From Alphaproteobacteria bacterium (GTDB lineage: Bacteria > Pseudomonadota > Alphaproteobacteria > JBKEAR01): a stretch of 64,000 nt of DNA. The notes under the pieces were generated by a model. That model searched no databases, was not told where the DNA came from, and saw only the letters and a list, made by a program, of their open reading frames with translations. The DNA lies in the NCBI GenBank assembly GCA_047972425.1, contig JBKEAR010000016.1, positions 5,500 to 69,499 of the forward strand, read 5' to 3'. Position numbers and translations under genes: made by a program. Positions 95 to 35,029 of the stretch are shown piece by piece (the first letter of the stretch is position 1; each line of letters starts with the position of its first letter).

Positions 95-1705
95 ATGACA
101 AGCCCAACCAACCCTACCCCATGGAAAGAAGCCGTTATTTACCAAATCTACCCGCGCTCCTTTAAAGATAGCAATAATGACGGTATTGGCGATATAAACG
201 GAATTATCGAAAAGCTCGATTATATCCAATCATTGGGTGTCGATATCATTTGGCTTTCGCCCTTTTTTAAAAGCCCCATGGATGATATGGGCTATGATGT
301 CTCGGACTATCGCGATATTGACCCGATATTCGGCACGATGAAAGATTTTGAAAATCTTGTGGCCGAAGCCGAAAAACACGGGCTTATCATTATGATGGAT
401 ATGGTGATGAACCATTGCTCGGATGAACATTTTTGGTTTACCGAGGCCTGTAAATCGGTGGATAATTCTTATCATGACTATTTTATATGGACAGATAAAC
501 CCAATAATTGGGTATCGTTATTTAGTGGCTCGGCTTGGGAATATGTGCCATCGGTCGGGAAATATTATTTGCATGTATTTTCTAAAAAACAGCCCGATCT
601 CAATTGGGAGAACCCCCAATTACGTGCAGAAATGCAAGATGTTATCCGCTTTTGGCTCAACAAAGGGGTAAAAGCCATTCGCTTTGATGCCATTACTTCT
701 ATCTCCAAACCCCATGGCTTCCCCGATGCACCCAATAATTTAGGCTTAACCGATTTTATCTCTTTTGGCCCCCATTTGGCCGAATGGTTAGAGGAAATTA
801 ATAGGGATGTTTTTGCTGAATATGATGTAATTACCGTGGGCGAAGGCCCGGCCATTGTGGATGATGAAATTACCACCATTACGGGTGATGATAAATGTTT
901 GCAAACCCTGCATGTGTTTAATGCCCATGGTCAGGATATCCGCGGTGGTGTGTTATTTAAGGCATGGCCGTTTGATGCTGCCCAATGGCAAAAAGATAGC
1001 CAAAGCTGGGCACAAGATTGTGATCGGCTCGCTATTTGGAATACAAGCGTTATTCAAAATCATGATTTACCGCGCATTGTCTCTCGCTTTGGTAACGATG
1101 GTGAATATTGGCAGCAATCCGCCAGCTTATGGGCAGTATGGAGCCTCACACAAAAGGCAGCTATTTATATTTATCAGGGCGAAGAATTGGGCATGCGCAA
1201 CCATGAATTTACGAGTCTTGATGAATATAAAGATGTTCAGGTACTCAATTTTGCTAAAGAAGTAGAGGATAGAGGTGAAAATTTAGCTGATTATTGGAGC
1301 GATATTAACTACCGCGCACGCGATAATGCTCGCACCCCGATGCAATGGGATAAAACCCAACCCTATTACGGATTTTCTGCCCACAAGCCTTGGATTAACG
1401 GCAATGAAGACGCTATTGATGCTTTAACGTCGCCCATTGTTGATGTATATCGCAAGCTTATTACCTTGCGCAAACAATATAAAGATATTTTGGTTTATGG
1501 CGATATTGTTTTTGATGAAAATAAAGGAGACGGTATTATTGGCTATAAACGCATCGGCAAGGATGAAATTTGGCAAATAATCCTTAATTTTTCCGATAAT
1601 ATTAAAGATTGTAATATCCCAAAAGGAAAAATCATTTATAATGATTACAATCACTTGAACCATGCGCAATTGCAGCCATGGCAGGCTCTGATTATAGAGT
1701 TATAA
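95..1705 (+). CDS. GH13 alpha-glucosidase / oligo-1,6-glucosidase
   Basis: WKEAVIYQIYPRSFKDSNNDGIGDI N-terminus; DMVMNHCS, RFDAI, QNHDLPR, YIYQGEELGM and RDNARTPMQW motifs. Confidence 0.93.
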   Translation: MTSPTNPTPWKEAVIYQIYPRSFKDSNNDGIGDINGIIEKLDYIQSLGVDIIWLSPFFKSPMDDMGYDVSDYRDIDPIFGTMKDFENLVAEAEKHGLIIMMDMVMNHCSDEHFWFTEACKSVDNSYHDYFIWTDKPNNWVSLFSGSAWEYVPSVGKYYLHVFSKKQPDLNWENPQLRAEMQDVIRFWLNKGVKAIRFDAITSISKPHGFPDAPNNLGLTDFISFGPHLAEWLEEINRDVFAEYDVITVGEGPAIVDDEITTITGDDKCLQTLHVFNAHGQDIRGGVLFKAWPFDAAQWQKDSQSWAQDCDRLAIWNTSVIQNHDLPRIVSRFGNDGEYWQQSASLWAVWSLTQKAAIYIYQGEELGMRNHEFTSLDEYKDVQVLNFAKEVEDRGENLADYWSDINYRARDNARTPMQWDKTQPYYGFSAHKPWINGNEDAIDALTSPIVDVYRKLITLRKQYKDILVYGDIVFDENKGDGIIGYKRIGKDEIWQIILNFSDNIKDCNIPKGKIIYNDYNHLNHAQLQPWQALIIEL

Positions 1706-1758
1706 GTTATTTTTTAGATTATTATCAATAAAATGATTAGAAAAAAATATAAACTTAC

Positions 1759-1787
1759 TTGACGAAACACTATAGTAATCCTAAATT
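1759..1787 (+). promoter_or_regulatory. sigma70-type promoter of trxA
   Basis: TTGACG-N17-TAAATT upstream of GAAGGA RBS and ATG 1830. Confidence 0.55.
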
Positions 1788-1829
1788 GAAAATACCGACC
1801 ATAGAGAAATTTAGAAGGAATAGAAAGTT

Positions 1830-2144
1830 ATGACCTTAAATGTAACCCAAGATAATTTTCAGGCAGAAGTCATTGATGCCGATAAACCCGTTATCGTTGA
1901 TGTTTGGGCAAGCTGGTGTGGCCCATGTAAAATGCTCTCACCCATTATTGATGCCCTTGATACCGAAATGGACAATGTAAAATTTGTTAAACTTAATGCC
2001 GATGAAAATCAAGAGTTAACCGCAGCCTTAGGTGTACGCAATTTACCAACACTTGTATTATTTAAAAATGGTGCCGTTGAAACCGTGCGTATGGGTGCAG
2101 CCCCTAAAGGCCAAATTCAAGCATGGGTTAATCAAAATATCTAA
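1830..2144 (+). CDS. trxA: thioredoxin
   Basis: WCGPC active site, 104 aa. Confidence 0.97.
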   Translation: MTLNVTQDNFQAEVIDADKPVIVDVWASWCGPCKMLSPIIDALDTEMDNVKFVKLNADENQELTAALGVRNLPTLVLFKNGAVETVRMGAAPKGQIQAWVNQNI

Positions 2145-2172
2145 ATGATTCAATATCTATTATAAAAATTTT

Positions 2173-2197
2173 AAGAGGGCTTTTGCCCTCTTTTTTT
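2173..2197 (+). terminator. intrinsic terminator after trxA
   Basis: AAGAGGGC-TTTT-GCCCTCTT followed by T run. Confidence 0.85.
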
Positions 2198-2304
2198 GTT
2201 CAAATAAATAATTGCATGAAACCATGCATATGTAAAATGCGCTTAACAATAAATCAATATCATGTTACAGATAATAGAGATTTCATAGAACAAGGCGCAT
2301 AATA

Positions 2305-3429
2305 ATGGGTGAGCAAAAAGTAACGTTAGATAAAGCAAGTTTATATTGGATAATCGCTACAGTTGTGGTTATTACATTCGCTTTTTTAAATATGATCCAA
2401 ATGTTTTTGGTTCCATTATTTTTAGCCGCTATTTTAAGCATGTTATTTGCCCCGATATTTCGTTGGTTTAATCAACATTTAAAAAATCGCCCAATCTTTT
2501 CATCAATACTCACTATATTTACGGTTATTATAGCCCTGATATTTCCGCTATTTTTCATTATTGATATCATTATCAAACAAACAAGCGAATATATGGTTCA
2601 TGCGCGAACACTCACAAGCAATATCTCCCAAACCAGTACAGCCGATACCATTATATTTATCGAAAAACTCCCATTTGGTCACTGGATTATTGCACACCAA
2701 ACAGAAATTTTAACCAAAGTTGCCGAAATTTCTCAAAAAATAGCAACAATTGTTCTGAATTTATTGCCGGCTATTGGGCAGCAAGCGGTTTCCTTCTTTT
2801 TAAGCATGTTTATCATGCTTTATGCCATGTTTTTCTTTTTACAATATAAGGGAAATCTTTTTAGCAAGTTATTTGCCTATACAGGATTACCAAACGAAAT
2901 TAAAGATGAGTTATCGGAGCGTGTTATTTCCATTAGCCGCGCAACGATTAAAGGAACGATTATTATTGGTATTGTCCAAGGACTTTTAGGTGGTATCGGT
3001 TTTGCGCTTACAGGCGCACCTGCCCCCGCATTTTTAGGGGCTGTTATGGCCATAGCATCAATCATACCGGGTATTGGTACGGCGGTTGTTTGGATACCTG
3101 TTGTAATTTATTTATTTATGCAAGGCCAAACCATGCATGCCACTATATTATTGGCATGGTCGGCCGGTATTGTGGGAACAATCGATAATATTTTACGCCC
3201 CCGTTTGGTGGGAAATGATACAAAAATGCCAGATTTATTAATATTAATCAGCACATTAGGCGGTATAAGCGTTTTTGGTGCTGTGGGTATTATCTTAGGC
3301 CCTGTAATTGCCGGTTTATTTGTGAGTATTTGGGCTGTAGTTAAGGATCATAATAACGATATTGATTATAAAATAGATGATGTGTCTCAAGCACAAGGAG
3401 GATCTAATGCCAACAAAAAAAGAGCTTGA
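2305..3429 (+). CDS. AI-2E family transporter
   Basis: Multi-TM 374 aa; IPGIGTAVVW, DNILRPRLVG and GAVGIILGPVI motifs. Confidence 0.9.
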   Translation: MGEQKVTLDKASLYWIIATVVVITFAFLNMIQMFLVPLFLAAILSMLFAPIFRWFNQHLKNRPIFSSILTIFTVIIALIFPLFFIIDIIIKQTSEYMVHARTLTSNISQTSTADTIIFIEKLPFGHWIIAHQTEILTKVAEISQKIATIVLNLLPAIGQQAVSFFLSMFIMLYAMFFFLQYKGNLFSKLFAYTGLPNEIKDELSERVISISRATIKGTIIIGIVQGLLGGIGFALTGAPAPAFLGAVMAIASIIPGIGTAVVWIPVVIYLFMQGQTMHATILLAWSAGIVGTIDNILRPRLVGNDTKMPDLLILISTLGGISVFGAVGIILGPVIAGLFVSIWAVVKDHNNDIDYKIDDVSQAQGGSNANKKRA

Positions 3430-31373: not shown

Positions 31374-31501
31374 GGGTCTTCCTATCCAAAATATTTATTT
31401 ATCATTTATTCATAACCGAATTTTATTAAATGACTCTTAATAAAGAATTTCTGCTGATAAATTAATTGTAAATCATGGGCAAATTATGGTTAGGCGTGTC
31501 T

Positions 31502-31706
31502 ATAGTCTATACATAATAAAATGATTATATAGACATCAGTAATAATTTGATGTTAAGGGGTTTGCAACCCGTAAAGCCGAAGGCTTTCTAAAAAAAGATA
31601 ACTTGTCTCCGACAAGATATAATCCCCGCACACAGCTACGCTGTGGGCAACCTCAAAGCATTAGGTAATACTAAAATTTATTATCATTTTAAGTAGTATT
31701 ACCTAT
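31502..31706. mobile_element. 205-bp non-autonomous MITE-like element, copy 1
   Basis: 203/205 identical to 34547-34751 with unrelated flanks; imperfect terminal IRs; no coding capacity. Confidence 0.88.
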
Positions 31707-31881
31707 ATTATAAAAATTTTCAGACAATCTCGATTTTTATTTTAAAGTTTATATATTAAAATAATCGAATATTTATCTTTACACAAAACCACGCCAATGT
31801 TATGGTTTATATGAAGAAATATTTGTAATCAATAATGAAAAAAAAAATTGTAAGGATTGATTAATTAACACGGAGGCAAAT

Positions 31882-33453
31882 ATGCTTAACTCATTAGGGA
31901 AAAGAGTTATATTTTTGTTTTCTGCTGTCTCAATATTTTTATCGGCCGAGGCGGCTAATGTGGATAATATTATCCCTGCCCCCCATGACCATAGCGGTTA
32001 TGAAGAATTAAAAGGGCCGTTTACTACAGCTTTTGAGGTAACCGAGGCTTGTTTATCTTGCCACGAAAATACAGCAGATGAAATTCATGCAACCAGCCAT
32101 TGGCAATGGAAGAGCCTAGAGAATGAAAATTTGGGCAAATATTCACGTTCGCTCAATAATTTTTGTATTGCCACACCGGGCAGCGAGGCCTTTTGTACCT
32201 CTTGCCATATTGGTTATGGTTGGAAAGACCCCAATTTTGACTTTAGTAGCAATAACGCCATAGATTGTTTGGTTTGCCACGATACAACAGGCCTATATAC
32301 CAAACAAGATGCCGGCATGCCCAAATTGTTAGATAAACCCGATGGCAGCCCAACCTTTTTAGATGATATTGCCTTAAATGTTGGCACGCCGGGGCGTGAT
32401 AACTGTGGTGGCGCATGCCATTTTAAAGGCGGTGGCGGCGATGGCGTAAAACATGGCGATCTCGATAGCTCGCTCACCAATCCTCCGCGCGAATTAGATG
32501 TGCATATGGCGGCCGATGGTGCCAATTTTGCTTGCCAAGAATGCCATACCACCCGCGAGCATCAGGTAGCTGGGCGCTCTTATACCACCCCTGCTTTCGA
32601 TGAATTTAAAAGCTTGGTGGATGACCATAATATGAGCAAACTGCCTTGTACGTCTTGCCATAGCGATACCCCCCATAAAGACAAGCTTGCCGCAAAACTA
32701 AACGACCATACCGATACCGTTGCTTGCCAAACATGCCATATACCCGCATTGGCACGGGGCGGATTACCCACCAAAGTTTCATGGGATTGGTCTACAGCTG
32801 GCAAGCTTAAAGATGGCAAACCCTATGAAGATAAAAATGAAGAAGGAAAAACCATTTATGCCAGTAAAAAAGGCGATTTTATTTGGGAACATAATGTAGC
32901 ACCCGTTTATTTTTGGTATAATGGTGCCATGAGCTATATTACCATTGATGATAAAATTGATGATAGCCAACGTGTTACCATTAACCATCCCCTTGGCGAT
33001 GTAAACGACCCAAGGGCGCGGATTATGCCGTTTAAACGCCATATAGGCAAACAGCCTTACGATACGGTGAATATGACCATGTTACAGCCCGATGTTGCCG
33101 GAAACGGCACGGAAGAAGCCGATGCCGCCGCCTTTTGGAAGCATTTTAACTGGGCAAATTCTTTAGCTGTTGGTACAAAAATACGTGGGCAAGAATTTAG
33201 CGGGGAATTTGATTTTATTGACACCGAGTTCTTTTACCCCAGTACCCATATGGTTGCCCCCAAAGAAGATGCACTTAAATGTGCCGAGTGCCATAACGCC
33301 AATGGCCGCCTAAAAGATGTTGCGGGCGTATATATGCCCGCGCAAAAACATTTTGAGTGGATAGAAATTCTTGGTTGGCTCATGGTAGGCTTTACAACTT
33401 TAGTATCGATTATTCATTTGGTACTACGCATCATCAACAGAAGGAGAGGCTAA
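31882..33453 (+). CDS. octaheme c-type cytochrome, tetrathionate reductase (OTR) family
   Basis: 7 CxxCH plus one CxxxCH; NNFC, GGGGDGVKHGDLDSSL, DVHM motifs; signal peptide and C-terminal TM. Confidence 0.9.
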   Translation: MLNSLGKRVIFLFSAVSIFLSAEAANVDNIIPAPHDHSGYEELKGPFTTAFEVTEACLSCHENTADEIHATSHWQWKSLENENLGKYSRSLNNFCIATPGSEAFCTSCHIGYGWKDPNFDFSSNNAIDCLVCHDTTGLYTKQDAGMPKLLDKPDGSPTFLDDIALNVGTPGRDNCGGACHFKGGGGDGVKHGDLDSSLTNPPRELDVHMAADGANFACQECHTTREHQVAGRSYTTPAFDEFKSLVDDHNMSKLPCTSCHSDTPHKDKLAAKLNDHTDTVACQTCHIPALARGGLPTKVSWDWSTAGKLKDGKPYEDKNEEGKTIYASKKGDFIWEHNVAPVYFWYNGAMSYITIDDKIDDSQRVTINHPLGDVNDPRARIMPFKRHIGKQPYDTVNMTMLQPDVAGNGTEEADAAAFWKHFNWANSLAVGTKIRGQEFSGEFDFIDTEFFYPSTHMVAPKEDALKCAECHNANGRLKDVAGVYMPAQKHFEWIEILGWLMVGFTTLVSIIHLVLRIINRRRG

Positions 33454-33454
33454 A

Positions 33455-34042
33455 ATGACAGAACGGACTTATGTGTTTACACGTTTTGAGCGCCTATGGC
33501 ATTGGTCTCAGGCTGCGATTATATGTATGCTTTTACTTTCGGGCTTTGCTATCCATGGTAGTTTGGGCGGGTTCATTGATTTTTCTACCGCTCACCGCAT
33601 GCATATGGTATTTTTATGGTTATGGTTAGGCTCTTATGTATTTTTGCTGTTTTGGTTACTTGTTACGGGTGAGATTAAACAATATAAACCCACAACCGAA
33701 AATGTAACCAATTTGTTTAGCTATTATTCATCGGGGATATTTAAAAAAGAGCCCCACCCCCACCAAGTACGCCGGGATAAAAAACTGAATGCTTTACAAA
33801 TTATCTCTTACGATATGGTATTGTTTATTTTAGCCCCCATACAAATAATATCGGGCTTATGTTACCTTTATTATAATCAATTTGGCCTCAGCCACGCAAG
33901 TTTGGGTATCATTGCGGCTATCCATACTTTGGGTGCATTTTCCTTTTTGGCTTTTTTGGTTATCCATATTTATTTAGCCACTACAGGGCCTAAGCCTTCC
34001 AGCTATTTTAAAGCCATGTTTACCGGATATAACGAGCATTAA
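33455..34042 (+). CDS. cytochrome b/b6-domain membrane partner of OTR
   Basis: FERLWHWSQA, HRMH, NALQ, HTLGAFSFLAFLVIHIY heme-b histidines. Confidence 0.88.
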   Translation: MTERTYVFTRFERLWHWSQAAIICMLLLSGFAIHGSLGGFIDFSTAHRMHMVFLWLWLGSYVFLLFWLLVTGEIKQYKPTTENVTNLFSYYSSGIFKKEPHPHQVRRDKKLNALQIISYDMVLFILAPIQIISGLCYLYYNQFGLSHASLGIIAAIHTLGAFSFLAFLVIHIYLATTGPKPSSYFKAMFTGYNEH

Positions 34043-34111
34043 ATATTGTTGAAGATAAACGAATAATAAAATAATGTCCTTTGCGAAAGGGAATATGACG
34101 ATATATGATTT

Positions 34112-34126
34112 GTTCACTTTTTGTTC
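34112..34126 (+). promoter_or_regulatory. alphaproteobacterial LexA (SOS) box
   Basis: GTTC-ACTTTTT-GTTC (GTTC-N7-GTTC) abutting a -35 element. Confidence 0.7.
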
Positions 34127-34155
34127 TTTACAAAATATATTTTTTATGGTATGGT
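34127..34155 (+). promoter_or_regulatory. sigma70-type promoter upstream of DUF559 cassette
   Basis: TTTACA-N17-TATGGT. Confidence 0.6.
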
Positions 34156-34231
34156 TTTAACAGAATAAAAAAGTGTGATACGGATTTTTTGGGGATAAGA
34201 AAATAATAGAATAATATCCTCTTTTTAGAAG

Positions 34232-34310
34232 GTTTTGTCGGAGACAAATGAATAATAAAATCGTCCCCTCTTTAGAGGGGAGTCAGGCTTTAGCCTGACG
34301 GGGTGTGTTT
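34232..34310 (+). repeat. left 79-bp inverted repeat of DUF559 cassette
   Basis: 73/79 identical to reverse complement of 34918-34996; three internal hairpins. Confidence 0.92.
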
Positions 34311-34336
34311 AATCGTTTAATAAGGTATATTTTAAA

Positions 34337-34934
34337 ATGACAAATAGAACAATGCCCAAACAGGCTATTATCCGCTATCATCCTGATTTAAATTAAAAAG
34401 CCAGATACTTACGGTCGCATAGCACAAAAGCGGAAGTTATTTTATGGCAGCATCTAAAAAATAAAAAATTACTTGGTTATCAGCTTAAAAGACAAAAACC
34501 TTTATTATCTTATATTGTCGATTTCTATTGTGCCGAACTCAGGCTCATAGTCTATACATAATAAAATGATTATATAAACATCAGTAATAATTTGATGCTA
34601 AGGGGTTTGCAACCCGTAAAGCCGAAGGCTTTCTAAAAAAAGATAACTTGTCTCCGACAAGATATAATCCCCGCACACAGCTACGCTGTGGGCAACCTCA
34701 AAGCATTAGGTAATACTAAAATTTATTATCATTTTAAGTAGTATTACCTATATTATTGAGCTTGACGGTTATTCTCATGATAATGAAAAATCACAATCTT
34801 ATGATCATGACAGAACTAAAGAATTAGAAAATTATGGTTTACATATCGTGCGGTTTACCAATGAAGACATTTATCATAATATAGAGGCTGTACTTGCATC
34901 AATTGAGACATATAAAAAAACACACCCCATCTAG
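34337..34934 (+). pseudogene. DUF559 (Vsr-like) endonuclease, interrupted
   Basis: Removing the 205-bp insert gives ...ARYLRSHSTKAEVILWQHLKNKKLLGYQLKRQKPLLSYIVDFYCAELRL|IIELDGYSHDNEKSQSYDHDRTKELENYGLHIVRFTNEDI...; also in-frame TAA at 34394-34396. Confidence 0.9.
34547..34751. mobile_element. 205-bp MITE-like element, copy 2 (inside DUF559 gene)
   Basis: Direct repeat of 31502-31706; clean removal restores the reading frame. Confidence 0.9.
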
Positions 34935-34996
34935 CTAAAGCTAGACTCCCCTCTAAAGAGGGGACTATTTTATTATTCATTTGTCTCCGACAAAAC
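34918..34996 (-). repeat. right 79-bp inverted repeat of DUF559 cassette
   Basis: Reverse complement of 34232-34310; overlaps the DUF559 stop codon. Confidence 0.92.
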
Positions 34997-35029
34997 AGGA
35001 AAACATTGGTTTTTCTCTAAATTTCAGCT

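Follow-up and report, generated by a model that had tools for sequence, protein, structure and literature searches.

Does the DNA ahead of a decayed DUF559 gene hold a promoter that responds to DNA damage, and, if so, what would that promoter serve? The window analyzed here is a stretch of 64,000 nucleotides (C61:5500-69499 of a 69-contig, 94%-complete assembly of 2.12 Mb and 40% G+C). It contains a direct repeat, GTTCACTTTTTGTTC, which matches GTTC-N7-GTTC exactly and is followed without a gap by a TTTACA -35 hexamer, a 17-nt spacer and an extended -10 (Table 1). A promoter scan of the window returned this TTTACA/TATGGT pair with 9 of 12 matches and the TG. The original prediction, of a LexA box-controlled promoter pointing into the DUF559 cassette, had described these elements exactly as we read them, base for base. 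Its estimate of about one chance match in 64 kb was also fair, as the one match observed compares with 0.64 expected and 51 of 100 shuffled windows contained at least one. The window alone thus proves nothing about the box, whose significance comes from evidence outside it, namely the presence of 16 paralogous box-plus-promoter units and a score of 14.6 bits that ranks 23rd genome-wide.

Table 1. Features at and around the candidate promoter, in window positions.
Feature	Start	End	Strand	Remarks
REP-like unit (TTG..GATAAACGAATAATAAAAT + hairpin)	34046	34100		Direct-repeat family D1, inverted pair I2; just upstream of the module
Predicted SOS-promoter module, window copy (C61:39611)	34111	34189	+	nhmmer profile match, E=1.3e-17
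Candidate LexA operator, GTTC-ACTTTTT-GTTC	34112	34126	+	Exact match; 14.6 bits, rank 23 in the genome
-35 hexamer, TTTACA	34127	34132	+	Offset identical in 16/16 copies
Extended -10, TGg-TATGGT	34147	34155	+	TG at 34147-34148, TATGGT at 34150-34155; 17 nt after the -35; also in the promoter scan
Predicted transcription start, ~A34162	34160	34164	+	7 nt downstream of the -10 by usual sigma-70 geometry
Left 79-nt inverted repeat of the DUF559 cassette	34232	34310		Inverted pair I1, 92% complementary to 34918-34996
DUF559 (Vsr-like nuclease) pseudogene	34337	34934	+	In-frame stop near 34394; 205-bp MITE insertion at 34547-34751
Right inverted repeat	34918	34996		Inverted pair I1; terminator-like hairpin and T-run on the plus strand, 34947-34974
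mutT, convergent	35030	35464	-	From the ORF list; edge of the lineage-specific insert 31374-35029

The organism encodes a LexA of its own (C44:18395-19057), which scores 161.8 bits against the TIGR00498 equivalog model (cut-off 110.95) and combines a DNA-binding domain with an S24 self-cleavage domain, as a cognate LexA does. At its DNA-binding N-terminus, it shares 63-69% identity with the LexA proteins of many Alphaproteobacteria. The LexA consensus of Caulobacter is GTTCN7GTTC (PMC12700426), and of 80 other Alphaproteobacteria, 78 have a perfect match, usually preceded by T, in the 250 nt ahead of lexA, which bears out the identification of the motif as the alphaproteobacterial LexA site. 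In the study genome, this direct repeat recurs, with the same kind of T-rich spacer, at lexA, recA, uvrA/ssb, ruvA, dinB/polA and rarA. The lexA locus has three tandem half-sites, the recA box (GTaCTCTTTTTGTTC) lies just 3' of a -35-like TTGCAA hexamer, the uvrA/ssb box occupies the intergenic region between the two genes and that of rarA stands 5 nt before the gene. The divergent polA and dinB genes have one common box (19.0 bits), located 5 nt before the dinB start and overlapping the -35 region of an extended -10 promoter that faces polA (C64:6200-6420). A weight matrix made of 87 lexA-promoter boxes, from other Alphaproteobacteria only, was scanned over the whole genome (~4.2 million positions) and places the window box (14.6 bits) among those of lexA (15.4), rarA (14.4), recA (11.7) and dinB (19.0). 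As far as sequence can show, GTTC-N7-GTTC is the LexA operator of this organism.

The position of the box is less usual. Most canonical SOS boxes of this genome are located at the -10 or downstream of it, and in the direction of the gene they read GAAC, whereas that of the window lies upstream of the -35, its last base directly preceding the hexamer, and reads GTTC towards the promoter. The only canonical site that resembles it is the polA-ward side of the polA/dinB box, where an extended -10 (TTTTTATGGTATAAT) gives the same arrangement, so that a box reading GTTC towards its promoter is not unique to the family described below. With the operator flush against the -35, steric overlap of bound LexA with the core promoter is plausible.

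Boxes were also seen in other settings. A perfect one (17.8 bits) stands 5 nt upstream of a DJ-1/PfpI-like ORF at C51:8870, which is open for only 63 codons and may be what is left of an SOS gene. A near LexA box (ATGTTTCATATTTGTTCTG, 15-16 bits) occurs ~40 nt inside the terminus of a multi-copy IS element (C69:48785, C29:351, C25:11682 and C5:19046).

The genome contains 37 perfect matches to GTTC-N7-GTTC, and 16 of them, including the window box, share a much longer sequence. A profile search with nhmmer retrieved exactly these 16 copies (E values from 6e-12 to 7e-22) along with two weak partial matches; both half-sites are intact in every copy, and 15 of the 16 boxes fall within the 29 best matrix positions of the genome. 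The common unit, hereafter the module, spans ~75 nt and consists of the box, the -35, the 17-nt spacer and the extended -10, with the consensus T-GTTC-N4-TTT-GTTC-TTTACA-AAAA-N5/6-TTTTATG-N-TATGAT-TTATC-TATAAT. In pairwise alignments it starts at -1 (or at -25 together with a REP hairpin) and ends at ~+62 to +77, which makes the LexA box its 5' edge. For the window copy, the pairwise BLAST alignments begin at -9/-4 and end at +71/+77, counted from the first base of the box. A GNA-triloop REP hairpin is found directly upstream in 9 of the 16 copies.

All copies carry TTTACA-17-TAnnnT at an identical offset on the forward strand, with 8-11 of 12 matches and with TGn in 15 of 16. On the reverse strand, the best candidates in the 16 copies were weak and differed in position from copy to copy, and none was consistent. 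We read the site as a LexA-repressed sigma-70 promoter and as one member of a lineage-specific family of 16 SOS promoters of ~75 nt, and put the probability of this reading at roughly three in four. The sequences themselves show the anatomy, the number of copies, the pattern of conservation, the genomic context and the fact that the box matches the SOS operator of the genome; from these we infer LexA binding, repression, damage induction and the start site, as well as any mode in which copies spread. A LexA dimer would bind GTTC-N7-GTTC at about -50 to -36, against the -35, and would thereby block RNA polymerase at a promoter predicted to be intrinsically strong (TTTACA, 17 nt, TGnTATGAT). Upon DNA damage, activated RecA would lead LexA to cleave itself and the promoter would fire. 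In the window, the predicted transcript would start at ~34162 and run first through a REP hairpin and then through the left inverted repeat before reaching the dead DUF559 gene; its probable end is the terminator-like hairpin in the right inverted repeat.

What lies behind the other copies bears on what such promoters could be doing. All 16 are intergenic, and about 9 of them occupy convergent intergenic regions, a class that accounts for 21% of the intergenic regions of at least 250 nt (P ~0.002). Five are in tandem regions, all five co-directional with the genes, and one is in a divergent region; over half of the copies face no gene or a convergent gene. As a whole, the family is distributed as a portable promoter would be, in intergenic DNA only and by preference between convergent genes, where it would be least harmful. 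The nearest co-directional genes follow leaders with ribosome-binding sites and encode a GST_N_4-type GST (C67, 31 nt), an orphan 194-aa protein (C57, 46 nt) and another GST (C28, 103 nt). A LysE exporter, an NMT1-like binding protein and an esterase lie farther away (243-442 nt), and a seventh gene, lipB, is behind an intervening tRNA. The genes directly behind modules are unrelated to each other, and there is no repair gene among them.

Most of the genes beside modules are accessory and look recently acquired. In G001, the one sister species compared, orthologs are missing for five of six downstream cargo genes. Four of these have no match at all, and the fifth, the C67 GST, is matched only by a relative of 35% identity that contains a stop; the esterase has a 57% homolog with no box upstream. 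Core neighbors are kept in G001 at amino-acid identities of 82% (mutT), 86% (ppa) and 97% (ycgN), and argJ and nagZ at 73-74% DNA identity. The one full module copy of G001 follows ycgN, and the orthologous site in the study genome holds other repeats instead. Some regulator genes near modules are repeated in the assembly: contigs C36 and C63, with different module loci, both end in an identical 251-nt fragment of a DeoR-type gene, and the module loci of C45 and C69 have a 97%-identical AraC-type gene region in common. These are either duplicated regulators beside modules or unresolved assembly branches.

The abundance of convergent copies lends itself to a further reading that is compatible with the proposed LexA-repressed promoter family: those copies would drive damage-induced antisense or non-coding RNAs that dampen the genes they face, with AraC-, GntR- and DeoR-type regulators, a U32 peptidase, the intact DUF559 gene of C26 and mutT/argJ as targets. 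Several of these targets are regulators, and the convergent copies keep box and promoter as intact as the others do. We nevertheless consider this unlikely: no conserved transcript, structure, terminator or small ORF follows the modules, convergent enrichment is equally expected of selfish insertions that are tolerated, and in the window the terminator-like hairpin precedes mutT.

We also considered whether the module itself encodes a small RNA or a small peptide and rejected both, as there is no conserved terminator, structure or ORF downstream. The homology between copies ends ~25 nt after the predicted start, which is not what a family of small-RNA genes would look like, and a search of 12 module loci against Rfam gave no match to the module, only an unrelated tRNA. 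One relative without a box (C54:14323-14400, minus strand; TTGCAA-AAATCAAATTTTTATGC-TATGTT) has a hairpin ~25 nt past its -10, with seven consecutive T behind it, and looks like a small RNA gene.

We then come to the gene at which the window promoter points. The original prediction that nuclease expression is or was inducible by DNA damage survives in part: a strong candidate operator is joined to a near-consensus sigma-70 promoter pointing rightwards, and the DUF559 remnant is, as had been noted, the sole plus-strand coding sequence between it and the convergent mutT. The terminator scan of the window found no plus-strand terminator-like site between the module and the remnant; from ~34162 onwards, the first one is in the right inverted repeat, where the scan gave TCCCCTCTAAAGAGGGGA followed by CTATTTTATT. 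The dead nuclease gene is thus what the window copy would transcribe, with the left inverted repeat in the 5' leader. That the gene is dead is seen with tblastn, in which the intact DUF559 protein of C26 aligns to the window as two segments of 64% and 56% identity, the first of them containing a stop. The MITE that also interrupts the gene has copies 99-100% identical genome-wide. A damage-induced transcript at this locus, which is what the prediction literally says, is possible.

The stronger version of that claim, in which the box is the cassette's own damage-inducible control and the nuclease an SOS function, is improbable. It draws on the fact that both DUF559 loci of the genome lie 250-630 nt from a module, which has a chance of ~0.4-3% by rough estimates, on the co-directional window gene with a terminator-like hairpin only after it, and on the likewise accessory nature of the other co-directional cargo. 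Dedicated control fails, however, on four lines of evidence. The only intact DUF559 gene, on C26, is antisense to the neighboring module, and its own upstream region contains no box; modules at the 14 other loci stand without DUF559, ahead of unrelated genes or of none; the window copy is dead; and the closest relatives of the protein (39-53% identity), which come from Bacteroidota, Ignavibacteria and other phyla, carry no module. The check that had been proposed, a search for the box in homologous cassettes, was run on 80 DUF559 homologs elsewhere, none of them alphaproteobacterial, and gave no module and one chance box in 40.8 kb. Modules and DUF559 both accumulate in long, repeat-rich intergenic regions, which also weighs against a functional pairing.

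No conserved, co-oriented association of box and promoter with DUF559 was thus found. Transcription of the dead DUF559 gene is a property of the window locus and not of DUF559 cassettes generally, and we regard the adjacency of both DUF559 loci to modules as an unexplained coincidence. The link between the two is weak, and the DUF559-specific result is mainly negative and narrows that hypothesis.

The locus as a whole is specific to the lineage. The comparison of the window with G001 revealed a 3.65-kb block that is missing in the latter, where argJ, mutT and nagZ are contiguous and mutT is directly followed by nagZ; the block 31374-35029 is therefore lineage-specific. It lies between nagZ and mutT and comprises a MITE, an octaheme cytochrome, a cytochrome b, the module and the DUF559 cassette. 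The insert splits an apparent operon, and its cytochrome b has no homolog in G001.

The MITE deserves a description of its own. This 205-bp element (window 34547-34751 and 31502-31706) has ~17 copies at 97% identity or more and ~9 diverged ones (73-78%) genome-wide, and occurs elsewhere on C51, C54, C22, C18, C15, C57, C34, C10, C7, C67, C11 and C35. For four young copies, the distance to a module is 450 nt or less, compared with ~1.2 such copies expected (P ~0.03), and a fifth is 190 nt from the LexA box at C51:8870.

Is the module, then, itself such a repeat, inert and merely resembling a box with a promoter, and conserved only through recent copying or gene conversion? Its surroundings would fit: its flanks are mostly other repeats, modules sit within repeat arrays, often with the REP hairpin upstream, and more than half of the copies face no gene. 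It does not, however, belong to the MITEs or the REPs. No terminal inverted repeats or target duplications were found around the module, as a MITE would have, and its core is no palindrome and has the REP hairpin as an optional neighbor only (9/16), which sets it apart from REPs and REPINs. A search of the assembly, which is 94% complete, gave no match to the Y1 (RAYT) transposase family PF01797, and control genomes did give matches.

The divergence of the copies argues more directly against recent copying. Over the 70-nt core, pairwise identity averages 69% (range 56-86%) and falls to 42% at the 14 clearly variable columns, near saturation, so the modules are not recent duplicates. For the 19 columns named as functional beforehand, the majority base is present on average in 15.84 of the 16 copies, versus 11.41 elsewhere, and 100,000 random draws of columns did not reach this value once. 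Little or no variation is seen in both half-sites, the -35, the TG and positions T1, A2 and T6 of the -10. The -35 is TTTACA in 14 copies, TTTGCA in one and TTTACG in another, and the -10 shows the classic pattern of TAnnnT in 16/16 with identical spacing and free middle positions. Because the left half-site is invariant despite variable sequence on both of its sides, gene conversion by tracts is hard to invoke. Decayed relics are almost absent, with a single box-less relative (C54:14359).

The copies are mosaics in which every type of box spacer is paired with every type of sequence after the -10, and recombination between copies therefore occurs, as the view of an inert repeat would have it. 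The latter can also point to spacer positions that are invariant for less obvious reasons. An A-tract and a T-tract surround five variable spacer bases (AAAA-N-TTTT) and are as invariant as the hexamers in 16/16 copies, at module positions +21 to +34 (window 34133-34146). They may be a second operator, a curvature element or a TRTG -16 motif. As this invariance exceeds the needs of LexA and polymerase, another factor or gene conversion may contribute. With over half of the copies facing nothing or a convergent gene, conservation of the half-sites and promoter need not reflect a benefit to the host and could instead reflect what the element needs for spreading. Still, a matrix built independently of this genome ranks the module boxes with those of dinB and lexA, and three copies lead into genes through typical leaders with ribosome-binding sites. 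Together with the pattern of divergence, this makes an inert repeat very improbable.

The evidence on how copies of the putative LexA-repressed promoter arise is limited to co-duplication with flanking DNA and recombination between copies. Longer common flanks are found for C67-C68, with an upstream REP array, and the C22 module keeps a remnant of a C67-type GST start. A scheme in which promoter and cargo were duplicated together and the cargo then decayed explains only C22 and, weakly, C69. No clean empty site was recovered from G001 at the three loci tried; downstream of ycgN and at dnaA-GST-ppa, the intergenic DNA was completely remodelled or synteny was broken, and at the third, the window locus, G001 lacks the whole 3.65-kb block.

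Activation has to be weighed as well. Activators of the response-regulator type typically bind 11-bp-phased direct repeats just upstream of the -35, and LexA of Rhodobacter sphaeroides reportedly stimulates recA transcription as well as repressing it. A study of M. tuberculosis LexA describes cases of positive regulation (PMC3381160). A different regulator acting on the direct repeat, or LexA acting as an activator, would suit a box at -50 to -36 that abuts the -35 from upstream, but it is highly improbable, since the core promoter is near consensus (10/12 plus TGn in most copies) and needs no activator, and the identical motif marks lexA, recA, uvrA/ssb, ruvA, dinB and rarA.

Beyond the genome, the module is rare. 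An exact-pattern scan of ~185,000 species genomes recorded three occurrences, namely the G001 copy, a copy on a contig binned as Paracoccus and a copy in one Dongia MAG, and a metagenome scan for the module returned nothing. The Paracoccus sp. contig (JBKEBH010000130.1) is AT-rich and 1.6 kb long, with the module divergent from an Ada-like zinc-finger gene; it is probably mis-binned, given its composition and its origin in the same study as G001. The Dongia module (on CAYOYT010000181.1) is 60-69% identical to copies of the study genome, lies in a low-G+C island (218-3425, minus strand) and stands immediately ahead of three genes, an orphan of 534 aa and two paralogs of ~235 aa. These three cargo proteins had no match in Pfam, NCBIfam or PDB, and the layout of the island can be likened to an SOS-induced toxin-immunity or bacteriocin cassette.

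In its operator and its predicted logic, the module would be an ordinary alphaproteobacterial SOS promoter. As in Caulobacter, Rhodobacter and Sinorhizobium, the operator has a 7-nt T-rich spacer and usually a preceding T, and the cognate LexA is intact; the module box also abuts the core promoter. The amplified, copied unit is the new aspect. In an ordinary SOS regulon, which in Caulobacter comprises ~31 units (PMC12700426), unrelated promoters each evolve a box, whereas here 16 operators are paralogous copies of 75 nt that outnumber the seven canonical SOS loci found and mostly stand ahead of non-repair accessory genes or of nothing.

One precedent is that of the putative mobile promoters, highly similar promoters found ahead of unrelated genes in one genome (Matus-Garcia, Nijveen and van Passel 2012; PMC3575422). 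Many module pairs would qualify as such, with identity of at least 80% over at least 50 nt and non-paralogous downstream genes (for example C32-C34, 86.7% over 75 nt, and C34-C61, 85.5% over 76 nt). Both are without a known route of movement, and the module also turns up once in Dongia, a distant genus. It differs in having a candidate repressor operator as its 5' edge, and what is copied would thus be regulated transcription and not merely a constitutive promoter. Correia elements, ERIC and REPINs are promoter-bearing repeats to which the module can be likened, but Correia elements and REPINs have terminal inverted repeats, which the module lacks, and no partner transposase was found for it.

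Repeats and mobile elements tied to LexA are known in other forms. The 13E12 units of M. tuberculosis are protein-coding insertion elements of ~1.3 kb. They resemble the module in being a multi-copy, LexA-linked repeat family and differ from it in that the module is a 75-nt non-coding promoter with varying cargo. LexA also controls genes of mobile elements, such as the Tn5 transposase, integron integrases, and colicin and pyocin operons, where SOS boxes on moving DNA couple expression to damage and regulate the element's own function. By contrast, module copies share neither cargo nor a mobility gene, and no family was matched by the cargo of the Dongia copy. As for the 13E12 (REP13E12) repeats, most members are bound and directly controlled by LexA, accounting for 6 of 25 ChIP-seq peaks, and the units are described as insertion elements with phage attachment sites (PMC3381160). 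Our literature searches returned no report of a short, non-coding LexA operator-promoter unit amplified beyond the canonical SOS operators, and nothing on LexA boxes carried by MITE-type repeats.

Two thirds of the candidate LexA operators in this genome (16 of ~23) are copies of a single 75-nt unit, whereas regulons are usually thought to grow by the slow, independent evolution of binding sites. We tentatively propose, as one possibility among several, that the module is a portable LexA-gated cassette that spreads within and occasionally between genomes, wires new genes into the damage response and keeps a strong foreign promoter off as long as the cell is undamaged. With it, this 2.1-Mb genome would have come to hold roughly three times as many LexA operators. 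In eukaryotes, stress regulons have been rewired by repeats in a comparable way, as with the p53 sites carried by endogenous retroviruses. The module also raises the questions of whether repression works from a box set against the -35, whether LexA is titrated by the additional operators and whether convergent regulators are subject to antisense effects. If LexA binding and induction hold, it would be a clear case of a bacterial stress regulon expanded by the copying of a ready-made regulated promoter, and it would suggest a safe route for the expression of acquired genes, which would stay silent until the cell is damaged.
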